A stretch of DNA of 64,000 nucleotides from a virus (IMGVR_UViG_3300037560_000207:64001-128000), one strand, 5' to 3'; positions 2,345-56,348 are shown, numbered from the stretch's first letter. Notes: generated by a model not told the origin, from the sequence alone. A program made the numbers and translations.

Positions 2345-2593
2345 ATGGAAACACATATAAAAAAACCGAGGGTAGAACCTGGGAGTCAAACGTGGAGACT
2401 CACACGCAAGGAGGTATGTGAAATCATCTTTACCTCAATATATGGTCGTAAACCCACACCGGAAGAAATACAGAGACTCAATGTGGATGTTACTGATAAT
2501 TATGATAGGGGTAGAGGTGAATCCAAACCTGAATGGTTGAGTCTGTCGCTTACAGATATTCCTCCAATACTTAATGACGTGGCCCAATCTTAG
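2345..2593 (+). CDS. hypothetical protein
   Basis: ATG2345 preferred over the TTG start given in the track. Confidence 0.45.
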   Translation: METHIKKPRVEPGSQTWRLTRKEVCEIIFTSIYGRKPTPEEIQRLNVDVTDNYDRGRGESKPEWLSLSLTDIPPILNDVAQS

Positions 2594-2655
2594 GCGCTCG
2601 CCAACAAAGGAGTATAAGGTGCATGAAGAATCACCACTAGAAAAGGAATGTAGTA

Positions 2656-3051
2656 ATGAAGAAATGGCCAAAAGGTAATAAACAAGCACAATTTACCGAT
2701 ATAACCAAGCCAATTTGTGAGGCAATCCGATTTGCCTACGACCTCAAGCGCAAGAATCGAGGTCGCAATGTACCTTGGGATGGACTCGATATCGGCGAAA
2801 ATATGAAAGCTTGTTATATGTCCCCGAACGAACGGCTTCAACGTGATAATCTGAAATACGATGAACAAGAGCAAGATCGTGATGCACTCCAGATCATCGT
2901 TGGAATTGCAGTTCAATTGGGTATCGAACAGGAACGCCGAAGGTTGTGGGGTGAATTAGACACAGATCTACTACTTCTTAATTTGCACGCAAAAAACTGT
3001 TACGAGACCGTTAAAGGTCTTATCGAAGACAGTGAAGTATCGAAAAATTAA
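2656..3051 (+). CDS. phage hypothetical protein
   Basis: AAGGA RBS; 131-aa ORF. Confidence 0.6.
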   Translation: MKKWPKGNKQAQFTDITKPICEAIRFAYDLKRKNRGRNVPWDGLDIGENMKACYMSPNERLQRDNLKYDEQEQDRDALQIIVGIAVQLGIEQERRRLWGELDTDLLLLNLHAKNCYETVKGLIEDSEVSKN

Positions 3052-3075
3052 CTAATAATTTTAGAAAGGAATGAA

Positions 3076-3291
3076 ATGGTAATTCTAGTAATCATAGGTT
3101 GGTTGGTGTGCGGAATTTTAACACAGGGACTACTCAGACATAATTACGCACAGTCTATTGTAGGTCCAGTACGTGGAGCAGACAGGCTTATTTTATGGTT
3201 TGCAACACTAGCAGGTCCACTTGGATTATTAACAGCAATTACAGTATGTGCTATTGACTGGACGTGGGGATTAAAGTTTAGAAAGGTATAG
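3076..3291 (+). CDS. two-TM membrane protein
   Basis: AAGGA RBS; two hydrophobic helices. Confidence 0.6.
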   Translation: MVILVIIGWLVCGILTQGLLRHNYAQSIVGPVRGADRLILWFATLAGPLGLLTAITVCAIDWTWGLKFRKV

Positions 3292-3341
3292 AAATGAAGG
3301 TTCGAGGTTGGATTCACATCATAGATTGTGGAAACGTCTTC

Positions 3342-3361
3342 GGCGTAGCTTAAGCTACGCC
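3342..3361. repeat. perfect 20-bp palindrome GGCGTAGCTTAAGCTACGCC
   Basis: Self-complementarity read directly from the sequence. Confidence 0.9.
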
Positions 3362-3435
3362 TTGTTAATGATGAGTGTCGTACACGTATACGACGGGATA
3401 AGCCGATTAGGGTGGGCTTTCGGCATGGGTAAGTA

Positions 3436-3741
3436 ATGGAAACCAAGAAAATGAGCGACTTTTCTAACATAGACGATGCACGAAAATTCAACCAATGGCG
3501 AGATAGAATCAATACGCAAATACCCGAACTAGCTAATAGAGTCTTTTCTCTGCGCCGGAAATTCTATAAAGGATGTGGTTTCCATTACAGTTTAGAAAAA
3601 ACACTCGGTACAGTAACAAAAGGATTAAATAATCATGATGAGCAGTGGGATTTTGCTGATCGTCTCGTTTTTGAAGTTGTCGTGGAAGGGCTCATAGAAC
3701 GAGTTATCGCTGCCGAAAAGAGTATAGTAAGAAGTCCCTGA
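3436..3741 (+). CDS. hypothetical protein
   Basis: 101-aa ORF. Confidence 0.5.
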   Translation: METKKMSDFSNIDDARKFNQWRDRINTQIPELANRVFSLRRKFYKGCGFHYSLEKTLGTVTKGLNNHDEQWDFADRLVFEVVVEGLIERVIAAEKSIVRSP

Positions 3742-3855
3742 CTCACTGATGTCCATAAGCTCGATGGAGTAAGGCATGATGTTTTAGTCGGGGATTTCCT
3801 ACTGTGCTGTTATGTACCATTTATGGTGTTAATCTATTCTTGTCTGGAGAAAAAA

Positions 3856-4137
3856 ATGGGATACTATCTCAATAACGGAAAAGCATCTGGTAAAGTAGAA
3901 TGGCTCGTTAAAGAACACGATGGTAAAATCGTTGATAAAGTCGAAGCGAGCACTGCTTTTAATGATCCATCACTGGCTGTCGTTGTAGTAATGGACAATG
4001 GCTTATTTGATGCGGCTGGTTTCGCATATGACATCGATGAATTTGAATCATTTACATCACCCGATGATATTCGACCAAAAATATTCCTTGTCATGAATAG
4101 AGAATTATGCGAAAAATTGAGTGGGTTCAATTCTTAA
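3856..4137 (+). CDS. phage hypothetical protein
   Basis: GGAG RBS before ATG3856 (MGYYLN...). Confidence 0.6.
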   Translation: MGYYLNNGKASGKVEWLVKEHDGKIVDKVEASTAFNDPSLAVVVVMDNGLFDAAGFAYDIDEFESFTSPDDIRPKIFLVMNRELCEKLSGFNS

Positions 4138-4346
4138 GGAACTAAAATGATTTTGAAGTGTACTTGCAAACATAAGTATCAGGATCGCATGTACGGAACC
4201 ATAATCGGGTTAATAATCCCTACAGAGGCCCTAATAGGGAGATTCTGTAAGAAGGAGCAAACTGCAAAATCATAGCCGGTTCCAATCTAGTTTGGCCTGT
4301 CATTGGGTACAAGATTTAAAAGACACCGGAAAAAAGGAATCAAAAA

Positions 4347-4550
4347 ATGAAGGAATCATCTCAAATAACAATTAGTCTCATGCACGGACAGTTTTGGGCA
4401 ATTCGATGTAGGGACGGTGGGTTAAAACAAGGCGCGGATGGTATACCTCACTTGTTTAAAACTCGTGCCAAAGCTCGTAAATACCAATCAAACTGGGTTC
4501 CCCATACAAAATGGGTAGTAGTTTCAGTATCTATATTAGAAAGACAATAA
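4347..4550 (+). CDS. hypothetical protein
   Basis: AAGGA RBS. Confidence 0.45.
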   Translation: MKESSQITISLMHGQFWAIRCRDGGLKQGADGIPHLFKTRAKARKYQSNWVPHTKWVVVSVSILERQ

Positions 4551-4564
4551 AAAAGGAGATAATT

Positions 4565-4831
4565 ATGTTCATCTTAACGATTTGGGACGCTAGAAGTCCA
4601 AACTACGGGGCCAACTCCTTTGTGGAAGCAAGGGGTACGGAAACAACTGATGTACAGACAGAACGTGATGCAATGCGATTACTCGGATGTGTGATCCGTG
4701 ACGAACAAATCGTCCGTGCGGTTCTCGAAACACCGACAGGCTGCTTAACATGGCAGCGAGACAAAGAAGAAGAGTTCGAATACGACGAGTGTTGTGACCC
4801 AGGTTGTGGAAATTGTGGATATTGCAATTAG
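4565..4831 (+). CDS. hypothetical protein with C-terminal Cys cluster
   Basis: AAGGAG RBS before ATG4565; ends in CCDPGCGNCGYCN. Confidence 0.55.
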   Translation: MFILTIWDARSPNYGANSFVEARGTETTDVQTERDAMRLLGCVIRDEQIVRAVLETPTGCLTWQRDKEEEFEYDECCDPGCGNCGYCN

Positions 4832-5012
4832 TAGTAGCGCGGTCGCTAATCGGAGAATCGAGTGTTTAAAAGAAAAATATACCACCGTTCCACAAGGTTT
4901 TGTGTATTCCCAGCCTTAACATATATGGAACTTGATGGCAAACCTGTCGGACACTGGGAACCAGGAGTTATCTTCAAGCCAACAGAGGTAGCCCTCAACC
5001 TACACAAGCACG

Positions 5013-5252
5013 ATGAGGCATCTTTTAGCATTGTTGGGTGGAAGAACACTCGTACTAGTCATTCTGATAGGTATTGCATTCACAATTGGTGCGCTGTTGT
5101 GGCCGTACACAATCAATAGTTGGTTAATCTATTCAGGTAGGCCACCAGCAATTGAGTGGTGGATGGGTGGATTGATGGGTCTCGTACCAGGCTTGGGGCA
5201 GTCATGCATTTCGGCAGCCTTTATCACATTTATCATCATGTTATTCATTTGA
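5013..5252 (+). CDS. membrane protein
   Basis: Two or three hydrophobic segments. Confidence 0.55.
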   Translation: MRHLLALLGGRTLVLVILIGIAFTIGALLWPYTINSWLIYSGRPPAIEWWMGGLMGLVPGLGQSCISAAFITFIIMLFI

Positions 5253-5348
5253 CCATGTGTTGCGTAAACCAGGATAAAATGTTGGAGGTCCGATTCTCTG
5301 TTGGATCGGTTGAGTCATTCAACGTAACCCCTTTTAAGGAAACTAACT

Positions 5349-5939
5349 GTGAATACAAACAAAAAAGCTTGGATGCTTTGTGGAGTAGTAATTTTTGCTT
5401 TAATAGCAACCGTTTCCCTGGCGGGTCCAGGAATTGTTGGAACGGACCATGATTTCTCATCTAAGGGCTGGTCCTCCAATCAGATTTGTTTACCGTGTCA
5501 CGTACCACATAATGCATTGACACCGGAAGATGGTCCGTTGTGGAATCACGCAGAAAGCACACAAACCTTTATTATGTATCAAACGGATGGACAGCTTGAT
5601 GGACCGAGCAAGCTCTGTCTGAGTTGTCATGATGGTGTTACAGCCGTGGACAGCTTCGGTGGAAACAGTGGGACAGAAGTCATCGCAGGTAATTCCAATA
5701 TCGGCACCGACCTCAGCGATGACCACCCAATTGGAATGGAGTATCCACCCCAAGGTTGGAATACAACTCGGTATAATGATCCACCGACTACGCACGAAGT
5801 TAGGTTGGTTAGGATCAATGATGTGAAAAGAGTTGAGTGTGTGTCATGCCATGACGTACACAATTCGAAAGGAATCGACAAATTTTTGCGGGCTCCCCTA
5901 GACGAGAGCTACCTCTGTCTGCTTTGTCATATCAAGTAA
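5349..5939 (+). CDS. secreted tetraheme c-type cytochrome, OmcE-like
   Basis: Signal peptide (MNTNKKAWMLCGVVIFALIATVSLA/G); four CxxCH motifs (CLPCH, CLSCH, CVSCH, CLLCH); further His in TDHD, VPH, DDHP, DVH; AAGGA RBS. Confidence 0.92.
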   Translation: MNTNKKAWMLCGVVIFALIATVSLAGPGIVGTDHDFSSKGWSSNQICLPCHVPHNALTPEDGPLWNHAESTQTFIMYQTDGQLDGPSKLCLSCHDGVTAVDSFGGNSGTEVIAGNSNIGTDLSDDHPIGMEYPPQGWNTTRYNDPPTTHEVRLVRINDVKRVECVSCHDVHNSKGIDKFLRAPLDESYLCLLCHIK

Positions 5940-6137
5940 TAGCTATGAGTCGGACCTCCAACTTTCTCTTACCGAACGGAGTTAAGCCATGAATACAGTG
6001 CCGTGGTACATAACAGTAAGTGTTGCATTGTTAGCTGGTATCATAGTAGTATGGGTATGTGACTCAGCATGTCAAGCGATAAAGTGGTGGAAACGTTAAA
6101 GTAAATAAGCATAACTTTTTTAGTGAAGAACAGAAAG

Positions 6138-6494
6138 ATGAACGAAACGATCAATCTAGTGATTACCAATCTGACAGATGGACTCAGTCAAGTTGCTGCA
6201 AGTGTAGTTGTTCATGCGGTAGTGCAAGATACTGCTAATCTAGGGTGTATGTACACGATAATTGGCACCGGACTCTTTGTAACTGGTGCCATACTCATCT
6301 GGCATCTGGTTCATTTAATGAACAAAAATCAAGAAGCAAAAAAATTAGAGGACGCAGCGCCAGCTATGGTGGTCGTAGGGATAACTGGTTTCACCTCCCT
6401 TATCGTTGGATTTGGCATAGCAGTAGCTCACATAAGCGACTGGTTCGGACCCACAAAGACGGTGTTCTGGAGACTGTTTTATGCAATCCAATAA
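6138..6494 (+). CDS. membrane protein
   Basis: Two hydrophobic helices; ATG6138. Confidence 0.55.
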   Translation: MNETINLVITNLTDGLSQVAASVVVHAVVQDTANLGCMYTIIGTGLFVTGAILIWHLVHLMNKNQEAKKLEDAAPAMVVVGITGFTSLIVGFGIAVAHISDWFGPTKTVFWRLFYAIQ

Positions 6495-6515
6495 ACTAAC
6501 TGTTGGAGTAAAAAA

Positions 6516-6773
6516 ATGATACAAGTTATTGAAGGAAAACACGCCCCAGAAGCAGTTCGAACAATCAGTCCGGGTGCGCCGTGATTTATTATAGAAGACC
6601 CTGATAAAGGCAGTCTGATGGGGCGCGCGGAAGTCATGCAAGAGATTCGTCGCGACTACTTACAAGCTGAAAATGTCAACTTCACCCGGAGTATTACGCG
6701 AGTTGACGGTAAAATCATCCATGTTGGAGCAAAAGTTGACCCGATGATCACACAGTTAGGATTGTTTGGTTAA
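6516..6773 (+). pseudogene. 85-codon frame interrupted by in-frame TGA at 6582-6584
   Basis: GGAG RBS; MIQVIEGK...PGAP*FIIEDPD... continues in frame to TAA at 6771. Confidence 0.5.
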
Positions 6774-6795
6774 CCAAGGAAAGAAAATCTGATAT

Positions 6796-7422
6796 ATGAG
6801 ACAGGTAGATGTGCCCGAAGGCAAAAGTGGTGATTGGGAAGTTGTTCGTTTCGAAGTAGCTGAAAAAGATGCGGCATTCCACAACCTACGAGAATCATTC
6901 CATAATGGTAGATTTATCAGGCTGGGAACATACACTAGCCTGACACGAAAAGGTTGTGTCATTATGTCTGACACGCAAACCGAAATACTGGACCTTTCTA
7001 AGCCAGTGTCGGTAGCCAGTCAAGCGAATCGATCAGATTCACGCCGTGTACTTATTAACGGATTGGGTCTTGGAGTAGTGTTACAGGCAATCCTGGATAT
7101 TATCACTGTAGAACATGTAACTGTCATCGAAAAATCTGCTGACGTAATTACACTTGTTGGGCCTCATTGGGAAGCCCGGTACGGTGATAGGTTGACAATA
7201 GTACACGCCGATGCGTTCGAGTGGAAACCACCCAAAGGTGAAAGATACTGTGTCGTCTGGCATGATATTTGGGATAATATCACGTCAGATAATCTATCTG
7301 AGATGCATCGGTTACATCGTAAATACGGGCAACGATGTGACTGGCAGAGTAGCTGGTGTAGGAGGAGGTGCGAATTTGCACTATCTCAGTCAAGGAAAAA
7401 TCATGGACATAATCGCCACTAG
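6796..7422 (+). CDS. SAM-dependent methyltransferase / spermidine-synthase-like Rossmann protein
   Basis: VLINGLGLG (motif I), VTVIEKS, IVHADAF, WHDIWD. Confidence 0.75.
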   Translation: MRQVDVPEGKSGDWEVVRFEVAEKDAAFHNLRESFHNGRFIRLGTYTSLTRKGCVIMSDTQTEILDLSKPVSVASQANRSDSRRVLINGLGLGVVLQAILDIITVEHVTVIEKSADVITLVGPHWEARYGDRLTIVHADAFEWKPPKGERYCVVWHDIWDNITSDNLSEMHRLHRKYGQRCDWQSSWCRRRCEFALSQSRKNHGHNRH

Positions 7423-7573
7423 GGAACTCATAAACCTAGTCAAAAAGAAATTTGGGGATGACGCTTACCTTGAGTTGTTCACCGATGGTAGCGGACGTAT
7501 TCTTGTCCAATACTGCCCGGTGATAGAATTCGATGGTCTAGGAGAATTGGCGGAAATTCTCTGTGTAAAATAA
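7403..7573 (+). CDS. hypothetical protein
   Basis: AAGGA RBS before ATG7403. Confidence 0.45.
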   Translation: MDIIATRELINLVKKKFGDDAYLELFTDGSGRILVQYCPVIEFDGLGELAEILCVK

Positions 7574-7584
7574 AAAGGGCTGCA

Positions 7585-7782
7585 ATGGAAGAAAAATGTT
7601 ACGACCAGTTTTTGCAGGAGATGACACTATATGTACGCGCATCGTATGAAAAGGCAACTGGTAAGGTCTTGGGAGAACACTTGACGGCAGCACTAAACGA
7701 TCTGTTAGATGTGTTCTTTCAAACCAAGTTCGAAAGCTCATCACCTGTTACAGAAGAAACAAAAGTATACCGGGTACATTAA
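7585..7782 (+). CDS. hypothetical protein
   Basis: Short ORF in a run of + genes. Confidence 0.4.
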   Translation: MEEKCYDQFLQEMTLYVRASYEKATGKVLGEHLTAALNDLLDVFFQTKFESSSPVTEETKVYRVH

Positions 7783-7829
7783 ACTGTGCGGGGTGGGGTG
7801 GTTTATTATAATTATAAAGGAGGACAACC

Positions 7830-8303
7830 GTGGTATGGAGTTGTTATTTCAGCAACGCTATAAAATTTCCATTGACAACCAGAGATGAAATCTGTGAAGT
7901 GCTGAATAACCCTGAATTTAATGGAATAGATTTCATGGTTGGAACTGGAATAAGTGGTGCGATAGTGCTTGCGCCAGTATCTATTGAATTAAATATACCG
8001 TATGGAATTATACGTAAAAAAATAGATAGAAAAACCCTAGTTCGTCATGGAGGGACTCATTCTAATACTAATATAGAAACATGTATCAAAACTGAGAAAA
8101 TCAACCAGTATGTAATTATCGATGATACAATTGACTCAGGTGATACCGTAAACAGAATTGTCGAATTAATGGACGGAGAATACGAACATTCCAAGTGTAT
8201 CGGTATTATCCTATATCAGCAATGGCCCGGCATGATCAAACACAACGATATTAATGTAACTTGTCTTGGTGAACGCATCCGTAATTTAGCAAAAGAGGAT
8301 TAA
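7830..8303 (+). CDS. type I phosphoribosyltransferase
   Basis: PRPP-binding loop YVIIDDTIDSGDT; AAGGAGG RBS with GTG start. Confidence 0.8.
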   Translation: MVWSCYFSNAIKFPLTTRDEICEVLNNPEFNGIDFMVGTGISGAIVLAPVSIELNIPYGIIRKKIDRKTLVRHGGTHSNTNIETCIKTEKINQYVIIDDTIDSGDTVNRIVELMDGEYEHSKCIGIILYQQWPGMIKHNDINVTCLGERIRNLAKED

Positions 8304-8308
8304 TTAAC

Positions 8309-8935
8309 ATGCCAGGAACATTAGTCAGCATAGATTTAGATTGGCTTAATGGTGCGGAATCTCCAATAGATAAATTACAAAGATTATTACGCCACATCCC
8401 CAGAAAAGTCCCGGCAGTTATAACTATAGAACATCACGAATTTCTGCCACACCTGCGTCGGTGGATTAAATCAAAAGAAGTCCCAATACCACTCAATATC
8501 ATCAATTTCGACGAACACCATGACTTCTACTACGGTCGTCCACCACTCGATCCCAATGGAACGGAAACAGACTGCGGTAATTGGGGTTTTCGTTTACCTA
8601 TCAAGTGGTATCGTAGATTCACTTGGGTCCATAACACTAATACCGAGTTTATCGACTGGGACAGGGCTCAAGAATGGCTTGATAAGCGAAAAATACAATC
8701 CTCTATGCGTAATAAACCTCGTCTATCAGAGTTGCGCACCGAAATTGTTGCTGCTATCTTTTGCGTCTCGCCTGACTATTTGAAAATAGATATGTTCAAC
8801 TGTATCTGTGACGCTATTGATATCGTAGCATGTCATTTTAAAATGGGAAAAGCACCACAAGTAATTCGTAATGGCCAGGGGGTATCTTCAGTAAAAGGGT
8901 GGAGAGTCGCTTCCCGCCCACAGAAAAGGAAATGA
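8309..8935 (+). CDS. UPF0489-like protein (arginase/deacetylase-like metal motifs)
   Basis: LVSIDLDW, IEHHE, INFDEHHDF, CGNWG. Confidence 0.6.
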   Translation: MPGTLVSIDLDWLNGAESPIDKLQRLLRHIPRKVPAVITIEHHEFLPHLRRWIKSKEVPIPLNIINFDEHHDFYYGRPPLDPNGTETDCGNWGFRLPIKWYRRFTWVHNTNTEFIDWDRAQEWLDKRKIQSSMRNKPRLSELRTEIVAAIFCVSPDYLKIDMFNCICDAIDIVACHFKMGKAPQVIRNGQGVSSVKGWRVASRPQKRK

Positions 8936-9310
8936 TATGACCGTATGGTTAATCCATGAGACCGTAAGGTTTTATGATCTGGATGAAATATTCAAGGTAG
9001 TCGGAGTATGCAAGACAAAACAGTTAGCATACGAGTGGATTGAGGAAGCAATGAAAATAAATGATGCACGGGTTTTTACTGTCCAGGGATTGAAGGTTAC
9101 TGAAAGGGTATCTTAGTGATAGTAACGTTATCTCCAAAAGATGAACTCATAGTGCAATTTAACGGTACAGATGGAGAGTTTAGTATCCATTTTGATACCG
9201 ACGAATTTCCCAACGCTATTGTAGTTGAAGAAACTGGTGGATATCCAGATAGTACGGGGCGTCAAGACATTCTTTATAAAGAAGACTTCGATTAAACACC
9301 ATCTAGGGAG

Positions 9311-9529
9311 GTGTGTATGTATCTCAACAGACCTCAATTATGGGAAAAACTCAACTCACTTGTGAACCATTATGGCGGCGATGAGAATTTTATAAAACAT
9401 ATGGACGAGTGGCCAAAAACAGTCAAAGAACTAATTTATAGCTCTGAGAAATTAATGATCCGCTTCAAACTCATTGAGCTAATCCCCGATTTAATTGATG
9501 ATGAAGATGTGATTATTGGGATGGAGTAA
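9311..9529 (+). CDS. hypothetical protein
   Basis: GGAGG RBS; followed by hairpin GACTCGTG-ACCA-CACGAGTC (9530-9549). Confidence 0.5.
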   Translation: MCMYLNRPQLWEKLNSLVNHYGGDENFIKHMDEWPKTVKELIYSSEKLMIRFKLIELIPDLIDDEDVIIGME

Positions 9530-23988: not shown

Positions 23989-24627
23989 GTGTTATCTTTA
24001 TTCGAACAACGATTTGGGAAACTGATAGCCATTTGGCCACAGGGAAAGAGTAAGCATAGAAAGATTCTATGGCTATGTCAATGTGATTGTGGCAATGAAG
24101 TAATTATAGGAGGTAGCTCACTTAAAAGTGGCCATACTAGAAGTTGTGGATGTCTGAAAATAGAAAAAATAAAACAACGATCAACCAAACATGGATATGG
24201 AAAATCTCATGTTTATCGAATATGGGCTAATATGATTCAAAGATGCACTAATCCAAATCGCAGTCAATATCAATATTACGGAGGTCGTAATATCAAAGTT
24301 TGTAAACGGTGGTCAAAGTTTAAAAACTTTCTAAAAGATATGGGTGAGGTGCCCCCTGGGCACCAAATTGATCGAATAAACAATAATGGTAATTATTGTA
24401 AATCCAATTGTCGTTGGGTAACTTCAAAACAACAACAAAGAAATAAACAAAACAACAGACCAATAACCTATAATGGTAGAACGCAACTTTTGATTGAATG
24501 GGCAGAAGAAACAGGTATTGATAGGGAAACTATTGCTGCGAGATTGAAAAGAGGTTGGTCTATCGAAAAAGCATTAATAACACCAATACAAAAACATAAA
24601 GTATACAAACTAAAAGATCGTGTCTAA
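23989..24627 (+). CDS. HNH homing endonuclease (family copy 1)
   Basis: RFGKL...WLCQCDCG...SCGC...RCTNP...YGGR.I.VC..W...IDRINN..NYC..NCRW. Confidence 0.85.
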   Translation: MLSLFEQRFGKLIAIWPQGKSKHRKILWLCQCDCGNEVIIGGSSLKSGHTRSCGCLKIEKIKQRSTKHGYGKSHVYRIWANMIQRCTNPNRSQYQYYGGRNIKVCKRWSKFKNFLKDMGEVPPGHQIDRINNNGNYCKSNCRWVTSKQQQRNKQNNRPITYNGRTQLLIEWAEETGIDRETIAARLKRGWSIEKALITPIQKHKVYKLKDRV

Positions 24628-29910: not shown

Positions 29911-30522
29911 ATGTCGGGATTTATTAATTTAATAGGGAAAAGATTTGGTAAATTGATTGTTATTCGAAGAATGAATAATAATAAAAGCAATAAAATAACA
30001 TGGCTATGTAAATGTGATTGTGGTAATAAAAAAATAATTTGTGGTGGGGACTTAAAAAACGGACGCACTCAAAGTTGTAGATGCCTACTTATAACACATA
30101 GTCTTAGCGACCATAACTTATATCCTATATGGAACCAAATGATACAAAGATGTACAAATATTAATGATAAATATTATAATATTTATGGTGGCCGAGGAAT
30201 CAATGTTTGTAAGAAATGGAGAGAATTCCCGAGTTTTCTTAGAGATATGGGAAGTGGGTGGAAACCCGGATTGACTCTTGAACGAACTAATAATAAACTA
30301 GGATATTTCAAAGATAATTGCGAATGGGCAACTCAGAAACAACAACAGAGAAATAGGCGAGACAATCATTTGGAAACTTATAATACTAAAACACAATGCC
30401 TAGCAGCCTGGGAGGAAGAAACCGGTATTAACCAAAGTACTATTCGATATAGACTCAAGGTTGGTTGGTCAATAGAAAAAGCCTTAACAACACCAGTTCA
30501 AAAAAGGAGAAAAAAGAAATGA
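29911..30522 (+). CDS. HNH homing endonuclease (copy 2)
   Basis: Same motif set as copy 1. Confidence 0.85.
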   Translation: MSGFINLIGKRFGKLIVIRRMNNNKSNKITWLCKCDCGNKKIICGGDLKNGRTQSCRCLLITHSLSDHNLYPIWNQMIQRCTNINDKYYNIYGGRGINVCKKWREFPSFLRDMGSGWKPGLTLERTNNKLGYFKDNCEWATQKQQQRNRRDNHLETYNTKTQCLAAWEEETGINQSTIRYRLKVGWSIEKALTTPVQKRRKKK

Positions 30523-33791: not shown

Positions 33792-34035
33792 ACGAATAAG
33801 TATCCTAACAGGCAGAGGAACAGATCAAATAAGCTTTTGTGTTCCAAACGATCAAGCATTGGATAAAGTGTTGGGCAATACAGAAGCCCGTCAGCTTTTT
33901 CCAGAACTCAGTTTTGATTTAAAAATCACTAAAGGTAAAGGTAAAGACTTACTAGCAGCACTCGGACTAACAGCCGACGAAATTATATCACTCGAACCCG
34001 TAAAATATGAATTTGGAAAACACAGATATGATTAA
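33766..34035 (+). CDS. hypothetical protein
   Basis: 89-aa ORF. Confidence 0.5.
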   Translation: MQKLQLEIRRISILTGRGTDQISFCVPNDQALDKVLGNTEARQLFPELSFDLKITKGKGKDLLAALGLTADEIISLEPVKYEFGKHRYD

Positions 34036-35530
34036 AACACTTGATAATAAAATAATCAACGATTTTTCAAAATTAAAACGAACTTACCGTGTATTAAAAA
34101 TATGCGATTCCTGTAGTACAGAAAGTAAACCACAATGGAGACACGCAAAAGCTTCCAGGGAAAAATGGAACAAAGATTTATGCGGTCCATGTACACGAAG
34201 TAAAAATCATGAAAGAATTAAAACTAGATATGGCCGTAAAATAAAAGCCGGAATACCAGGCAATTATGTGTTTCTATGGGATGAAAGACGTAAGAAATAT
34301 GTTGGAGAACATCAACTTATCTGGGAAGAAAGAACTGGCTTCAAAGTAGCAGGTACTGATATTAAAATCCACCATATTAATGGCCAAAAAGATAACAACT
34401 TGCCAGAAAATTTATGCGCTGTTTTCGGACATGCTGACCACAGAAAATTACATGCAAGATTAGAAAAAATAGCTTTTGAACTCGTTAAAAGAGGTGTCAT
34501 CTATTTCAACCATGACACTTGCGAATATTTTATCAATCCATCAGTAAAGATGTCTACTGCTCCAATATCTCTTGGATTCGAAGATATAGCTATTCTTCAA
34601 AAAAAGGCAATAGTCCGGTCACGAACCGACGTAAATATCACATCCGAAATAATGAGGAATATTGTATTAAATATTCCACTAATTGCTGCCAATATGAGTA
34701 CAGTAACTAATGTTGAATTTTGTATTTTACTTGAAAAATTAGGTGGCATGGGGGTATTACATAGAGCTTCTTCTAATGATTTATTAGAACAATGGACCAG
34801 CCAAATAGCACAATACAACAAGCTAGTAGCTGTTTCAATAGGTATTGGTGCTTCACAATTAGACCTAGCTAAAAAATTAATTCGTGCCAATGCCAACATT
34901 ATCTTTATAGATGTTGCCCACGGATATTGTGATCCTGTAATTGATTTAGGTCGTAAAATCAAAAAATTCGCACCAGATGTACATATTGTGGTTGGAAATA
35001 CCATACATCCTGGCTTATTTGCAGAAAGTGCAGATTTTGCATCAGCAGTCAAAGTTGGAATTGCTCAGGGATTTGCTTGTGAAACTAAAAATACAGCAGG
35101 AGTAACAGAAAAACAATTTTCAGCTATTCAAAAATGTATTATGGCATCCAAAATTTATGGGCTCCCAATGATCAGTGACGGGGGGATCAGAGAACCAGCC
35201 GATTTTGTAAAAGCAATTGCTGCTGGAGCGTCAAGTGTCATGGCAGGTAAAATCTTTGCCTCATGTCCAGAAAGTGCTGCCCAATTAAGTGAAAATGGGG
35301 AAAAAATATATGCAGGAATGGCAAGCCGATTTGTACAAGAACAATGGCATGGCCACGTAAAAAATGACACCCCAGAAGGTGGAATAAGATATCTCCCATT
35401 AGGAGAATCTGCGGAAAATTTACTTAAAAGGTATGCTGGATCATTAAGGTCTGGCATATCTTATGCTGGTTGTTCTAATATTCAGAATTTTCAAGACAAT
35501 GTAGATTTTGTAATAATTGGAAAAGTTTAG
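34028..35530 (+). CDS. HNH domain fused in frame to an IMPDH/GMP-reductase family enzyme lacking CBS domains
   Basis: EHQLIWE...IHHING.KDNN.PENL (HNH); then LGFEDI...SR...PLIAANMSTV, GVLHR, IDVAHG, VGIAQGFAC (catalytic Cys), ISDGGI, YAGMAS, LRSGISY. Confidence 0.82.
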   Translation: MIKTLDNKIINDFSKLKRTYRVLKICDSCSTESKPQWRHAKASREKWNKDLCGPCTRSKNHERIKTRYGRKIKAGIPGNYVFLWDERRKKYVGEHQLIWEERTGFKVAGTDIKIHHINGQKDNNLPENLCAVFGHADHRKLHARLEKIAFELVKRGVIYFNHDTCEYFINPSVKMSTAPISLGFEDIAILQKKAIVRSRTDVNITSEIMRNIVLNIPLIAANMSTVTNVEFCILLEKLGGMGVLHRASSNDLLEQWTSQIAQYNKLVAVSIGIGASQLDLAKKLIRANANIIFIDVAHGYCDPVIDLGRKIKKFAPDVHIVVGNTIHPGLFAESADFASAVKVGIAQGFACETKNTAGVTEKQFSAIQKCIMASKIYGLPMISDGGIREPADFVKAIAAGASSVMAGKIFASCPESAAQLSENGEKIYAGMASRFVQEQWHGHVKNDTPEGGIRYLPLGESAENLLKRYAGSLRSGISYAGCSNIQNFQDNVDFVIIGKV

Positions 35531-38152: not shown

Positions 38153-38344
38153 ATGGCTAATCTATTAAATAAGTCAGCGACAAAAAAATTCATCTTGGCT
38201 AAGTTCAAAAGCCTCCGTCCCGGTATGCCAATAACAAGAATATCAATAGAGGCACTCGAAAGATTGGAAGCAGATTTACGAGCAAAGATTATCTTTGAAG
38301 TAAGAAGGCACCCATCTATTGGAAAAACTTTTCGCATTGATTAA
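38153..38344 (+). CDS. candidate histone-fold protein (63 aa, short or absent alpha3)
   Basis: alpha1 NKSATKKFILAK; L1 TRIS; long alpha2 IEALERLEADLRAKIIFEVRRH; L2 GKTF. Confidence 0.5.
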   Translation: MANLLNKSATKKFILAKFKSLRPGMPITRISIEALERLEADLRAKIIFEVRRHPSIGKTFRID

Positions 38345-38960
38345 TTTAACAAATAAAATATTTGGAAGATTAAGAATAATTTGCCGTACATCAAATAATA
38401 AATGGGGCTCACCAAGATGGTTATGTAAATGTAGTTGTGGTAATGAAACAATTACTGAGGGTTCTAGTTTAAAAAACGGAAGCACTAAAAGTTGTGGATG
38501 TTTGAAAAAAGAAGGCAATAATTATAAACATGGCAACAATACAACAAATAAAAGAACACAAATTTATAGAGCTTGGGCTGCCATGTTAAATAGATGTAAC
38601 AACACTAAATATGAAAGATATCATCAATGGGGTAAAAGAGGAATAAAAGTTTGTAATAGGTGGTATAAATTCGAAAATTTTCTAGAAGATATGGGCAATC
38701 CTCCTACAAAATATCATTCTCTTGATAGAATTAATAATGATGGTAATTACTGTAAATCAAACTGTCGTTGGGCGACCCCAAAAGAACAGGGTCGCAATAA
38801 AAGAAACAATAGACTTATATCATTCAACGACAAAACACAATGTCTATCTGCATGGGCAGAAGAATACAAAATAAAATCGAGCATAATAGCGGATAGACTA
38901 AAACATAATTGGCCTATTAAAAAAGCTTTAATAACTCCTCCTAAAAAATGGAAAATTTAA
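38319..38960 (+). CDS. HNH homing endonuclease (copy 3)
   Basis: Same motif set. Confidence 0.85.
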   Translation: MEKLFALINLTNKIFGRLRIICRTSNNKWGSPRWLCKCSCGNETITEGSSLKNGSTKSCGCLKKEGNNYKHGNNTTNKRTQIYRAWAAMLNRCNNTKYERYHQWGKRGIKVCNRWYKFENFLEDMGNPPTKYHSLDRINNDGNYCKSNCRWATPKEQGRNKRNNRLISFNDKTQCLSAWAEEYKIKSSIIADRLKHNWPIKKALITPPKKWKI

Positions 38961-42739: not shown

Positions 42740-43405
42740 TTGGTAGAATTTATGTCGAAATTTATTGATTTGACGAGACAAAAGTTTGGGAGACTTGAAG
42801 TATTAAAACGGGTTGAAAACAATAAACAGAATAAGCCTCAATGGTTATGTCAATGTAATTGTGGAAATAAATCAATCGTTTCTGGTGGTAATCTTAAAAA
42901 TGGTAGTGTAAGAAGTTGTGGATGTTTACAAAAAGAAAAAGTTATAATCAATAATATTAATAAAACAATACACAGCCATTGTCGAAATAGAAAATCAACT
43001 GGATTTTATAATTCGTGGCATCAAATAATTCAAAGGTGTACTAATCCTAATAACGAAGCTTATCATAATTACGGTGGTCGAGGGATTATTGTTTGTAAAC
43101 GATGGTTAAAATTTGAGAATTTTCTTAAAGATATGATAAAAAGATGGAAACCTGGATTACAAATTGAACGGAGAAATAATAATAAAGGATATTATAAAAA
43201 GAATTGCAAATGGGCTACCAGGAAACAGCAAGCTAGAAATAGACGAGACAATCTTTATGTTTCTTATAATGGAGAAAATAGACTTTTTGTAGAATTATAC
43301 GAAGAACATAACATGCCTCGTAAAATTGTGCATAATAGATTTTATAATTATGGATGGACCATAAGAAGAGCTTTAACAACACCGGTAAAAAAGCGGAGTA
43401 AATAA
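42740..43405 (+). CDS. HNH homing endonuclease (copy 4)
   Basis: Same motif set. Confidence 0.85.
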   Translation: MVEFMSKFIDLTRQKFGRLEVLKRVENNKQNKPQWLCQCNCGNKSIVSGGNLKNGSVRSCGCLQKEKVIINNINKTIHSHCRNRKSTGFYNSWHQIIQRCTNPNNEAYHNYGGRGIIVCKRWLKFENFLKDMIKRWKPGLQIERRNNNKGYYKKNCKWATRKQQARNRRDNLYVSYNGENRLFVELYEEHNMPRKIVHNRFYNYGWTIRRALTTPVKKRSK

Positions 43406-46095: not shown

Positions 46096-46734
46096 ATGCC
46101 TAGTAAAATAAACTTAATTGGTAAACAATTTGGAAGACTTCTAGTTGTAAAAAAAGCTGGTATTGCTAAAACCAATCAAGTTCTTTGGTTATGTTTGTGT
46201 AATTGCGGGAAAACAACAACCGTTTATGGTGGAAACCTTTCAACCGGCCATACAAAAAGCTGTGGGTGTCTTGATATAGAGAAAAAAATACAAAGAGCAA
46301 CTAAACATGGCTATGAAGGGTCTAGAATTTATATAACATGGAATTCTATGATTCAACGATGCACTAATCCAAAAAGAAAAAATTATCCAAATTATGGTGG
46401 TCGTGGAATTAGAGTCTGTGAAAGATGGTTAAAATTTGAAAATTTTCTTGCAGATATGGGAGAACAACCATTAAATCGTCAGATAGATAGAATAAACAAT
46501 AACGAAGGATACTATCTAGAGAATTGTCGCTGGGCCACAAGAATACAACAAGCTAGGAATAAACAAAATAGTTGTATGGAAACTTATAAGGGAAAAACCC
46601 AATGTATGTCTGCGTGGGCAGAAGAATATAATATTTCATATCATGTTTTACGCGATAGAATAGGTAAATTAGGTTGGTCAATAGGAAAAGCTTTAATCAC
46701 CCCAATAAGAAAACTTAAAAGGAAAAGGAAATGA
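46096..46734 (+). CDS. HNH homing endonuclease (copy 5)
   Basis: Same motif set. Confidence 0.85.
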   Translation: MPSKINLIGKQFGRLLVVKKAGIAKTNQVLWLCLCNCGKTTTVYGGNLSTGHTKSCGCLDIEKKIQRATKHGYEGSRIYITWNSMIQRCTNPKRKNYPNYGGRGIRVCERWLKFENFLADMGEQPLNRQIDRINNNEGYYLENCRWATRIQQARNKQNSCMETYKGKTQCMSAWAEEYNISYHVLRDRIGKLGWSIGKALITPIRKLKRKRK

Positions 46735-52788: not shown

Positions 52789-53424
52789 ATGGGAGCACAT
52801 CTAATTGATTTAGTAGGAAAAAAATTTGGACGACTTATAGTTTTAGAACGGATTGATGATATTAATGGTAAACCGACAAGATGGTTGTGTAGATGTAATT
52901 GCAATAAAAAAATAACGGTTTTAGGTTATAATCTTAAAAATGGTAATACAAAAAGTTGTGGATGCTTAAAAATAAGACATGGTCATCGCACTATTACAAT
53001 AACATCTCCTACTTATCAATCGTGGCGTGATATGATTCAGCGATGTACAAATCTAAAATATAAACAATATCATTATTATGGTGGTCGTGGAATTACTGTT
53101 TGTAAGAAATGGAGAAATTCTTTTGAAATCTTTTTAGAAGATATGGGGGAGACACCTAAAGGATGTCAGATTGATAGAATTAACAATGATGGTAATTATT
53201 GCAAAGAAAATTGTCGTTGGATCACTCCTAAAAAACAAGCGAGAAATAGACGGAATAATCTTTACAAAACATATAAAGGGAAAACTCAACTTGTAATTGA
53301 ATGGGCAGAAGAATATAATATTCCATATGGAGTTTTGTCAATAAGATTATATAAACTTGGTTGGTCTATGGAAAAAGCATTAATTACTTCGGTCAAACAA
53401 TATAAAAAAGGAGAATTATTATGA
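52789..53424 (+). CDS. HNH homing endonuclease (copy 7)
   Basis: Same motif set; ATGA overlap with the RNR gene. Confidence 0.85.
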   Translation: MGAHLIDLVGKKFGRLIVLERIDDINGKPTRWLCRCNCNKKITVLGYNLKNGNTKSCGCLKIRHGHRTITITSPTYQSWRDMIQRCTNLKYKQYHYYGGRGITVCKKWRNSFEIFLEDMGETPKGCQIDRINNDGNYCKENCRWITPKKQARNRRNNLYKTYKGKTQLVIEWAEEYNIPYGVLSIRLYKLGWSMEKALITSVKQYKKGELL

Positions 53425-56348
53425 CAATGCCTTTATACGAACCAACCAGTTTTGCTTTACAAATATTCAAAGATAGATATGCAATTCATCAGGAAGAATC
53501 ATTTGCACAAGCATGTGAACGAGTTTCTAGGGTAATTGCTGATGCCGAAACAGGTACTAAAAGAGATGAATATTTTCAACGATTTTTGGATATTTTAGTA
53601 ACCAATCGATTTTCTCCAGGTGGTAGAATTTGGCGTGGAGCAGGTCGTCCACGAGGACAATTACTTAATTGTTTTTGTATTCCAGCAGAGGATAGTAGAG
53701 AAGGGTGGGGAGATGTACTTAGATCAGTTACTATTATATCCGGTACTGGAGGTGGGGTCGGAATCAATTTTTCTAAAATCCGTCCAAGAGGTACTTCTAT
53801 CCGTGGTACGGGAGGTGAGGCTACCGGCGCGGTTAGTCTTATGCGAGCAGTCAACGCTGTCTGTAATGAATTACGTGAAGGTGGTGGAAGGCGATCAGCT
53901 TTGATGTTCTGTTTAAAATATGATCATCCAGATTTAATAGAATTCTTGGAAGCCAAATTGGATGATAAAGAACTTAATAACGCTAATATCTCTGTCCTTA
54001 TTGATAATGATTTCTTAAAATTATTGGATGAGGATGGAGAAATTATTTTTAAATGGCAAGGAGAAAAACGTGGAAGAATTGCAATTAAAAGGGTTTGGGA
54101 TAAGATTATTCAAAATGCATGGAGAAATGGTGATCCAGGATTTTTGAACATTGGTTTAATGAATGAACAGAATACTATATCATATACAAAAGACGGCGAG
54201 ATATCATCAACAAATCCGTGTTTTACAAAAGAAATGAGACTTCATACAAGTCGTGGTATATTATCTTTACAAGAATTATTTGAGTCTGGTTGTTTTAATC
54301 GAGTAGTAACTGACAATAGATGTATAAATACAATATTGGATGGGGTAAAGATTCGTAATGCAAGCTCTGTCAAATTAACAGGATATCAACAACAAATTTA
54401 CAGAGTTATTACTTCTCATGGGAGTATAATAAGATGCACGAAATATCATGAGTTTATAACTCCAAGGGGTCGTAGACCATTATTTGCACTTAATCCTGGT
54501 GATTGGATAAATACACAACAAAAAGAAGGTTGTTGGGGAAATATTGGCGATTATGATGATGGATTAATTATTGGGTCTTTCGTCGGTGACGGTACCTTAT
54601 CATATGGAACAACCGATTTACCAAGTATGTGTCTTGATTATTGGAACGAAGAAGACTTATGTAATCATATGTTAAGATTAGTTAATAAAAAAGTAGCAAT
54701 TTATGAAAATAATAATGATTGTAGGAAATATGGTCCTTTATCTATTATAAAATGCCTCAAATATGCAAAATTACGGATTTCCTCGGCTAGATTAACGAAA
54801 TATTTTGAGCAGAAATTTCAAATACATGTTGAAACCCTTAAAACCAAATTACCAGAAGCTGTCTGGAAGGGATCAAGAGATATGGTTAGAGGATATCTAG
54901 CTGGTATATTTCAGGCTGATGGTTCTGTTCAGTTAAAGGATCGTGGGACAAAGGGTTCTCTTTGTGTTCGTTTATCTCAAAGTAATGAACAATTACTCAG
55001 AGAAATTCAAATATTATTGAGCAATTTTGGGATTATGTCATCTATACACAAAAGACGAAATGCTGATTATAGAAATTTACCAGATGGACAAGGTGGATTA
55101 AAACCATATTGGTGTAAAACTCAATATGAATTAATAATAAATAGACCAAATGCAGTTGTTTTTGAAAATTTAATAGGTTTTTCTGGTAACAAACAAAAAC
55201 AATTATCTGATGCTTTGGACAAGAGGGGCAGAGAATGTCAAAAGAAGGAAAGATTTATTGTACAAATTAAATCTATTAATCAAGACGGGATAGAAAATGT
55301 CTATTGTTTGAACGAACCAGAAACTCATTCATTGATAGTCAATGGATTGGTTGTAGGAAATTGTGGAGAAATCCCGCTTGAGGATTATGGATGTTGTTGT
55401 TTAGGTGCAATTAATTTATATACTCATGTTTCAAACGGTGAAATTGATTGGGATTTGCTCGAAGAAACGGTTTCTATAGGTGTTAGATTTTTGGATAATG
55501 TATTAGATCAAAACAATTATCCACTTCCTATTATCCAAGAAACGTCTCAAAAACACCGTCGTATTGGTTTAGGAGTCATGGGACTTCATGATATGCTACT
55601 TGAGCTTGATCTTAAATACTCCAGTAAAGAAGCTAGAGATTTTGTTAACAAGGTGATGAATTGCATAAAGAAACAAGCTTATCATTCTAGTATAAGAATT
55701 GCGATAGAAAAAGGGTCGTTCCACGCTTTTGATGTAAATCAGCATACTAAGACTGGTTTTGTTAAAAAGTGTTTGACACGAAATCATCATCGTCTAATTA
55801 AAGAACATGGTCTTCGTAATTGTGCCATACTTTGTATCGCCCCGACTGGGACTACATCTATTGTAGCTGGTTGTTCATCTGGTATTGAGCCATTGTTTCA
55901 ACCTGTCTACGAAAGACGTTTTAATAAACATAAAGATATGCATGATGATGAAAAAAGAGATAAAGCTACAGAAATAATAGTTCATCCATTATTAAAGAAA
56001 TTTTTAGAAGATCGTCGATCTACAAAACATTTTCAGGGTGCTCATGATATCTCACCAGAAGATCATTTAGCTATGCAAGCGGTTTGTCAAAGACACATAG
56101 ACAATTCTATTTCAAAGACAGTTAATTGCCCTGTTGATTATCCTGTAGAAGAATTATCTGAAATAATAAAAAAATATATCAGTGAACTCAAAGGGATTAC
56201 TATTTACAGAGATACTAGTAAAGGAAAATCACCACTTGTTCCGCTTCCCTTATCAGAAGCAAAAAAGTATTTGGATCAAATGAAAGAGGAAGCTGCTGTG
56301 GATGATTGTCCAAGTGGTGTATGTGATATTTCGAAAGGTGGTAATTAA
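53421..56348 (+). CDS. nrdJ: class II (B12-dependent) ribonucleotide reductase with intein
   Basis: SPGGRI; LLNCF; GGGVG; RRSA; NP|CGE active-site motif split by the intein; APTGT; SKTVN; C-terminal CPSGVC; no small subunit nearby. Confidence 0.88.
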   Translation: MTMPLYEPTSFALQIFKDRYAIHQEESFAQACERVSRVIADAETGTKRDEYFQRFLDILVTNRFSPGGRIWRGAGRPRGQLLNCFCIPAEDSREGWGDVLRSVTIISGTGGGVGINFSKIRPRGTSIRGTGGEATGAVSLMRAVNAVCNELREGGGRRSALMFCLKYDHPDLIEFLEAKLDDKELNNANISVLIDNDFLKLLDEDGEIIFKWQGEKRGRIAIKRVWDKIIQNAWRNGDPGFLNIGLMNEQNTISYTKDGEISSTNPCFTKEMRLHTSRGILSLQELFESGCFNRVVTDNRCINTILDGVKIRNASSVKLTGYQQQIYRVITSHGSIIRCTKYHEFITPRGRRPLFALNPGDWINTQQKEGCWGNIGDYDDGLIIGSFVGDGTLSYGTTDLPSMCLDYWNEEDLCNHMLRLVNKKVAIYENNNDCRKYGPLSIIKCLKYAKLRISSARLTKYFEQKFQIHVETLKTKLPEAVWKGSRDMVRGYLAGIFQADGSVQLKDRGTKGSLCVRLSQSNEQLLREIQILLSNFGIMSSIHKRRNADYRNLPDGQGGLKPYWCKTQYELIINRPNAVVFENLIGFSGNKQKQLSDALDKRGRECQKKERFIVQIKSINQDGIENVYCLNEPETHSLIVNGLVVGNCGEIPLEDYGCCCLGAINLYTHVSNGEIDWDLLEETVSIGVRFLDNVLDQNNYPLPIIQETSQKHRRIGLGVMGLHDMLLELDLKYSSKEARDFVNKVMNCIKKQAYHSSIRIAIEKGSFHAFDVNQHTKTGFVKKCLTRNHHRLIKEHGLRNCAILCIAPTGTTSIVAGCSSGIEPLFQPVYERRFNKHKDMHDDEKRDKATEIIVHPLLKKFLEDRRSTKHFQGAHDISPEDHLAMQAVCQRHIDNSISKTVNCPVDYPVEELSEIIKKYISELKGITIYRDTSKGKSPLVPLPLSEAKKYLDQMKEEAAVDDCPSGVCDISKGGN
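54219..55361 (+). mobile_element. LAGLIDADG intein (381 aa) inserted between NP and CGE
   Basis: Begins CFTKEMRL; block B CT..HEF; LIIGSFVGDG and YLAGIFQADG; ends ...LVVGN followed by C+1. Confidence 0.92.

Follow-up and report, generated by a model that had tools for sequence, protein, structure and literature searches.

The locus and its gene product

The window analysed here is a stretch of 64,000 nucleotides of viral DNA and spans bases 64,001-128,000 of the 181,360-bp record IMGVR_UViG_3300037560_000207 in IMG/VR. Close to its left end lies a gene for a tetrahaem c-type cytochrome of the OmcE family, which is preceded by a Shine-Dalgarno-like motif, bracketed by an inverted repeat and embedded in a long run of short genes on the same strand (Table 1). 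Its nearest neighbours encode small hydrophobic or membrane proteins, and phage-type genes, among them those for a methyltransferase, an RNA ligase and a DNA ligase, flank it on both sides. Scans for promoters and terminators around the cytochrome gene returned nothing above chance.

Table 1. Positions of the features discussed in the text, counted from the first letter of the window unless the genome is named
Feature	Position	Strand	Remarks
Upstream neighbour, 79-aa hydrophobic protein	5013..5252	+	no known family
Left arm of 19-nt inverted repeat	5278..5296	.	pairs with 5947..5965
AAGGA, Shine-Dalgarno-like	5336..5340	+	8 nt upstream of GTG; read from sequence
OmcE-family tetrahaem c-type cytochrome gene	5349..5939	+	196 aa, GTG start, TAA stop
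Sec-type signal peptide, residues 1-26	5349..5426	+	cleavage likely after SLA; inspection of translation
His34 (TDHD)	5448..5450	+	distal haem ligand candidate near mature N-terminus
Haem motif 1, C47-L-P-C50-H51, then distal His54 (VPH)	5487..5510	+	
Haem motif 2, C90-L-S-C93-H94	5616..5630	+	
His126 (DDHP)	5724..5726	+	distal haem ligand
Haem motif 3, C164-V-S-C167-H168, then distal His171 (DVH)	5838..5861	+	
Haem motif 4, C190-L-L-C193-H194	5916..5930	+	
Right arm of 19-nt inverted repeat	5947..5965	.	8 nt past stop codon
Downstream neighbour, 36-aa single-pass membrane peptide	5989..6099	+	no family match
Downstream neighbour, 123-aa membrane protein	6123..6494	+	no known family
Paralogues of ~205 aa	window 23989-24627, 29911-30522, 38319-38960, 42740-43405, 46096-46734, 52789-53424		
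Paralogues of ~205 aa, further copies	genome 27841-28458, 144498-145133		

An earlier note on this DNA had described a protein with a signal peptide, four CxxCH motifs and four additional histidines in the contexts TDHD, VPH, DDHP and DVH, encoded among genes for small membrane proteins, and all parts of this description held on closer analysis. The three neighbouring genes are real open reading frames. The signal peptide, with two lysines in the n-region, a hydrophobic core and SLA followed by G at the likely cleavage site, was recognized by eye and not with a dedicated predictor; a helix at residues 6-24 of the AF2 model falls within this region, and equivalent N-termini are present in homologues of the phage cytochrome.

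The eight cysteines, the four proximal histidines, H126 and H171 are invariant across 141 homologues; H34 and H54 each occur in 90% or more of these. H34, H54, H126 and H171 each align with a histidine of the OmcE proteins from Geobacter sulfurreducens and Desulfuromonas soudanensis (PDB entries 7TFS and 9YUQ), and all four haems would be bis-His ligated. The eight cysteines together with the four proximal and four distal histidines are all retained at about 45% divergence from the nearest homologue. Eight conserved regions of OmcE, consisting of the CxxCH motifs and the extra histidines, have been named previously (PMC13712944). H67 (WNH), absent from the list in the earlier note, is a fifth conserved extra histidine of the phage protein, at a position where OmcE has an arginine. 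Domain databases are less specific: Pfam recognizes only the generic modules Paired_CXXCH_1 and Cytochrome_C7, NCBIfam assigns a doubled-CXXCH domain, and PHROGs yielded no family for the phage cytochrome.

The arms of the inverted repeat are complementary at 17 of 19 positions with an exact core of 13 nt, and no second copy of the repeat exists in the 181-kb genome. When the flanks were shuffled 2,000 times, a single shuffle equalled it, and in the predicted RNA fold the repeat closes the whole cytochrome mRNA (z -4.1). No target-site duplication was seen at the repeat, and the other viral loci described below, like four cellular loci, showed no inverted repeats flanking their cytochrome genes. 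The repeat could act as a processing stem of the RNase III type, protect the mRNA ends or represent the ends of a cassette, and its role remains unexplained.

The gene resides in a complete phage genome

A direct terminal repeat of 127 bp closes the record, which CheckV rated 100% complete. The phage genome has genes for the portal protein and the large terminase subunit. Replication genes of the phage type are found in the window, which encodes a UvsX-like recombinase and a ribonucleotide reductase as well as an NAD-dependent DNA ligase and an RNA ligase. A contig of 35 kb from Logan, which was generated with a different assembler and has a depth of 76, covers window positions 2500-9500 with zero differences; this contig is possibly derived from the same sample as the IMG/VR record. 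The cytochrome gene has a GC content of 0.46 and a GC3 of 0.43, which fits its phage neighbours (GC 0.41-0.46), and lies about 15 points below its homologues from Phycisphaerae (GC 0.60-0.63). The composition of the gene has been ameliorated to that of the phage, in which it has resided for a long time. Within the phage genome, GC content is itself uneven: a block of some 30 kb, made up of short genes of early or accessory type (genome 50-80 kb, corresponding to window 1 to ~16000 plus the preceding 14 kb), has a GC content of 0.41-0.43, the rest of the phage has 0.35, and the cytochrome gene is located inside the block of higher GC.

The earlier note had considered misassembled host DNA as a possible flaw in its interpretation. 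Because the GC content is phage-like and a second assembler produced an identical contig, misassembly is very unlikely and the capture was not recent. An artefact of this kind, or a recently captured passenger gene that stays idle during infection, would be in line with the finding that only one sequencing run holds the stretch, a marine sediment metagenome that is possibly the source sample, and with the lack of the gene in three close relatives of the phage. Besides the composition and the second assembly, this explanation has against it that the record is closed by terminal repeats, that the frame is uninterrupted and no ligand has been lost, and that lone capture of such a gene recurs in unrelated phages, and we consider it barely tenable. 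No RNA run with the stretch was detected in the search of sequencing runs, which says nothing on expression.

The three relatives belong to 25 IMG/VR contigs that encode a large terminase subunit 59-84% identical to that of this phage. Three of the 25 are 96-100% complete and none of these three contains the cytochrome gene, which makes it an accessory gene in this phage clade, as its assignment to a phage accessory region in the earlier note had implied. A search for conserved synteny via the neighbouring methyltransferase gene retrieved 16 IMG/VR contigs, all of them unrelated viral contigs with no neighbourhood in common.

It had also been noted that the window is devoid of genes for cytochrome c maturation. 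PF01578 (CcsA/CcmC-type) and PF05140 (ResB-type) are absent from the whole phage genome as well, with control genomes giving positive results, and maturation of the cytochrome would therefore depend on the host.

Membership in the OmcE family

In a comparison with all PDB sequences, the phage cytochrome matched 7TFS with an E-value of 2.7e-21 (residues 11-196) and 9YUQ with an E-value of 7e-18 (residues 16-196). These two were the only significant solved relatives, both matches extend over the full length, and both entries are OmcE filaments analyzed by cryo-EM. The second one is the OmcE of D. soudanensis WTL, which forms bundled, anti-parallel nanowires (PMC13712944). An AF2 model computed from 141 homologues reached a mean pLDDT of 88, and Foldseek returned 7TFS as the sole significant match to this model (E 9e-10, TM 0.63). 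VIA-align likewise placed 7TFS first, with a Z-score of 14.3 and an rmsd of 2.5 Å over 156 residues at 36% identity, and the runners-up followed far behind (OmcS nanowire, Z 4.4; MtrA, Z 3.6). With 4,357 clusters at E<=0.001, of which 2,139 also pass E<=1e-10, the family is large. A chance match is excluded by the full-length alignment to 7TFS at E 2.7e-21 in combination with the size of the family, which exceeds 2,000 clusters at E<1e-10, and the phage protein is a true member of the OmcE family, as the earlier note had proposed. Like OmcE of G. sulfurreducens (GSU0618), it is a putatively secreted tetrahaem c-type cytochrome of about 200 residues with the same order of motifs and histidines, but it is shorter (196 versus 232 aa) and several of the OmcE loops are missing.

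Whether the phage protein polymerizes is a separate matter. In both published OmcE structures, the interfacial haem is ligated by a histidine of the adjacent subunit (PMC9473688, PMC12954529). In the phage protein, the ligand supplied to the neighbouring subunit's haem may be His34, a residue near the mature N-terminus; this assignment is a guess. Prediction of a complex of two copies of residues 27-196 with four haems yielded a score of 0.01 and left half of the sites empty, which argues neither for nor against polymerization. Filament formation is thus far extrapolated from two proteins of the Desulfuromonadia with about 31-36% identity, and no filament has been seen for any member of the OmcE family from Planctomycetota. 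OmcE-like tetrahaem cytochromes are widespread, and cluster context has been used to select those that are likely to form nanowires (PMC13712944). The physiological role of cytochrome filaments is a matter of debate (PMC11077965).

Gene clusters around the cellular relatives

We examined the cellular context in about 50 of 79 loci with homologues in GTDB genomes. In nearly all of these ~50 loci, the tetrahaem gene is followed, about 0.7 kb downstream, by a gene for an NHL propeller and then by a gene for a 5-haem cytochrome. The next gene encodes a protein of ~690 aa without Pfam match; it is followed by genes for another NHL propeller and for an MtrC-like cytochrome with 11 haems, and a 13-haem cytochrome is often encoded near the tetrahaem gene. 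The ~690-aa protein is predicted to form a barrel of about 30 strands (pLDDT 89) and has its best TM-score to MtrB of the Mtr complex. The loci of the cellular relatives represent the OmcE cluster as defined for the family (PMC13712944), and the nearest kin of the phage protein are therefore OmcE-type cluster subunits. This finding also speaks against the possibility, raised in the earlier note, that the closest homologues might be non-polymerizing periplasmic cytochromes: the closest cellular ones are no orphan periplasmic proteins.

OmcE-type clusters were found in metagenome-assembled genomes (MAGs) of Phycisphaerae, Calditrichota, Bacteroidota, Ignavibacteriota and Beta- and Gammaproteobacteria (loci L016-L094). 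Cluster-embedded homologues were previously described in five phyla, with Planctomycetota not among these and without mention of viral copies (PMC13712944), and several of the cluster-bearing phyla observed here are not in that list. No report of OmcE clusters in Phycisphaerae was found in the literature searched. In the genome of one member of the Phycisphaeraceae, two tandem tetrahaem OmcE-like genes head the cluster (L024:9791-11244).

Genes for the barrel, the NHL propellers or the partner cytochromes are present neither near the phage gene nor anywhere in the 181-kb genome. The sole match to a cluster protein in the phage genome is the cytochrome gene itself, which resembles a module of the 11-haem protein (33% identity). 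Since the cluster is absent from the phage and present for nearly all cellular relatives, the phage gene is a detached member. The closest relatives, stand-alone subunits from Phycisphaerae (e.g. L029, L017 and L016), have all ligands in common with the phage protein, and their genes have about 61% GC and are located between genes for the 13-haem cytochrome and an NHL propeller, whereas the phage gene is solitary and has a GC content of 46%. The same lack of adjoining barrel, propeller and partner cytochrome genes distinguishes the phage gene from that of G. sulfurreducens OmcE, and filament formation by the phage protein is only inferred.

OmcE-like tetrahaem modules also occur within larger cytochromes, such as the 11-haem MtrC-like protein of the cluster, to one of which (L029:15853-17649) the phage protein is 33% identical over 189 aa. 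The OmcE fold is therefore not restricted to filaments. Among larger proteins with such modules (P0122, P0123, P0180), one of 1,400 aa carries up to five of them, and these multi-module cytochromes could be covalently linked, 'pre-assembled' wires.

These observations bear on the question whether the phage protein might be a soluble carrier in the periplasm or at the cell surface, loaded with haem but not polymerizing, that would act as a shuttle or sink and feed a porin-cytochrome conduit or buffer electrons. The absence of genes for the barrel and the propellers, which are a mark of homologues that form nanowires, the exclusively generic Pfam modules and the presence of OmcE-like modules in larger cytochromes not known to form filaments would all be compatible with such a carrier. 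However, the two relatives with solved structures form filaments, the nearest homologues in cells belong to OmcE clusters as stand-alone subunits and are not periplasmic cytochromes of the c7 or c3 type, and His34 near the N-terminus is kept and aligned with a histidine of both solved OmcE subunits, so that we judge a non-polymerizing carrier to be unlikely.

Origin of the phage copy and captures by other viruses

The best homologues of the phage cytochrome are proteins of ~213 aa from MAGs of Planctomycetota/Phycisphaerae with 50-64% identity. Maximum-likelihood analysis of 47 proteins placed the phage cytochrome within the Planctomycetota clade (SH-aLRT 96) as sister (95) to a tight Phycisphaerae group. 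Its branch has a length of 0.64, compared with about 0.16 for its cellular sisters. The phage copy has a short N-terminus as found in L024 and L019 of Phycisphaerae, and the sister group has an insertion at this site. The search for a donor lineage by phylogeny, which the earlier note had suggested, thus led to Phycisphaerae within the Planctomycetota, from which the phage gene is derived according to its position in the tree. The host is likely to be a Phycisphaerae bacterium of the sediment, an inference that rests solely on the gene tree.

A scan of IMG/VR revealed seven more loci that represent five other viral lineages, on contigs of 11.7, 166, 303, 494 and 536 kb. At all of them a lone cytochrome gene with intact ligands is situated in a phage-like gene array without cluster genes. 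A generic terminase profile matches the 303-kb and 536-kb records. When the large terminase subunit of this phage was compared with the other viral records that carry the cytochrome, nothing matched; those phages are therefore not relatives of this phage. In the tree, L012 is placed in another Phycisphaerae subclade, L010 with betaproteobacteria, and L011 and L015 near Pseudomonadota. An arrangement with the copies of this phage, L009 and L012 in a single clade was rejected (AU p 0.00015). From the scattered positions and this rejection it follows that at least three independent captures took place.

L009 is a fragment of a related phage with 45-60% identity between the common genes. Its cytochrome gene adjoins the ribonucleotide reductase gene and so differs in position from that of this phage. 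A single capture common to this phage and L009 was not rejected (AU p 0.44), and the differing N-terminal forms and genomic positions hint at two capture events.

No homologue was detected by tblastn among the phages of INPHARED, and the literature searched contained no report of a phage-borne OmcE-type gene. New in this window are the Phycisphaerae-derived copy in a complete genome, its amelioration, its presence and absence among relatives, and the bracketing repeat.

Further features of the phage genome

The large subunit of the ribonucleotide reductase (window 53421-56348, 975 aa) is split by an intein with a LAGLIDADG homing-endonuclease domain at approximately residues 282-647. The homologue in L009 has 590 aa and aligns in two pieces around the intein. 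About ten scattered paralogues of a ~205-aa protein without Pfam match (Table 1) are 40-49% identical to one protein of L009 and may constitute a self-spreading gene family. A protein of 507 aa (window 34007-35530) combines an N-terminal HNH endonuclease region with a C-terminal region of a dehydrogenase-like family (phrog_9582).

Possible function during infection

We favor the interpretation that the gene encodes a phage-borne nanowire subunit of the OmcE type, acquired from Phycisphaerae, that feeds the wire of the host during infection, and we regard it as about as likely as not. In this scenario, the phage would express the cytochrome gene in the infected sediment bacterium, the Sec pathway of the host would export the protein, and the cytochrome c maturation system of the host would attach the four haems. 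The protein would then be passed to the OmcE-type apparatus of the host, consisting of the large outer-membrane barrel, two NHL beta-propellers and the partner multihaem cytochromes, and would polymerize head-to-tail, alone or mixed with the host subunit, into an extracellular haem wire. Electron disposal, and hence energy supply, could in this way be maintained while the phage replicates. Export, haem loading, use of the host cluster, polymerization, expression during infection and the benefit to the phage are all inferred, and the function given in the earlier note, a boost to extracellular electron transfer or an altered cell surface, is likewise an inference.

A filament needs thousands of subunits per pore, which would explain why phages capture only the subunit gene. 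The phage would carry only the component that is needed in bulk, as is the case with psbA of cyanophages, an auxiliary metabolic gene for electron transport of the host. A multihaem cytochrome of the NapC/NirT family is carried by amoC-phages (bioRxiv 10.64898/2026.06.18.733297). In both cases, as in the phage analyzed here, a large phage carries a single host-derived component of electron transport that groups with the homologues of the predicted host. Unlike these, the OmcE-type protein would be the building block of an extracellular polymer and not a membrane or periplasmic enzyme subunit.

Alternatively, the subunit might enter or cap the wire of the host and thereby alter a receptor or an adhesive structure, with respiration being of secondary importance. 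Such remodelling of the surface could prevent superinfection or keep new virions from adhering to debris. The long branch of the phage copy (0.64 versus ~0.16), which implies that the surface of the protein has diverged, and the location of the gene among small membrane-protein genes in an accessory region would fit this explanation, and recognition of filaments by phages has been raised as a selective force (PMC13712944). Adsorption to cytochrome wires is, however, without evidence for this or any other phage, and the residues for electron transfer are strictly kept in six independent viral copies, which fits selection for redox function and not for a plug. An effect primarily on the cell surface is therefore quite improbable in our estimation, and the supply of subunits to the host wire remains our preferred reading.

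In a broader interpretation, large phages of several bacterial phyla would repeatedly have taken only the polymerizing subunit and would thereby control the long-range extracellular electron transfer of their hosts in sediments and aquifers. We consider this generalization possible but rather doubtful at present.

Implications

Cytochrome nanowires are thought to wire anaerobes to minerals and to each other, and have been seen in few cultured species. Marine-sediment Phycisphaerae are likely nanowire builders, in a phylum that was not listed for this machinery in the literature searched. With its 196 aa, the phage protein offers a compact natural variant on which expression and filaments could be studied. 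An intact subunit gene that occurs alone and was captured independently by unrelated phages suggests a value for the energy supply or the cell surface of the host, and would place extracellular electron transfer among the processes that are reprogrammed by viruses. If the broader interpretation given above is true, infection would directly alter mineral respiration and possibly the exchange of electrons between cells, and the captures would constitute independent evolutionary evidence that the filament subunit limits the energy supply of the host.
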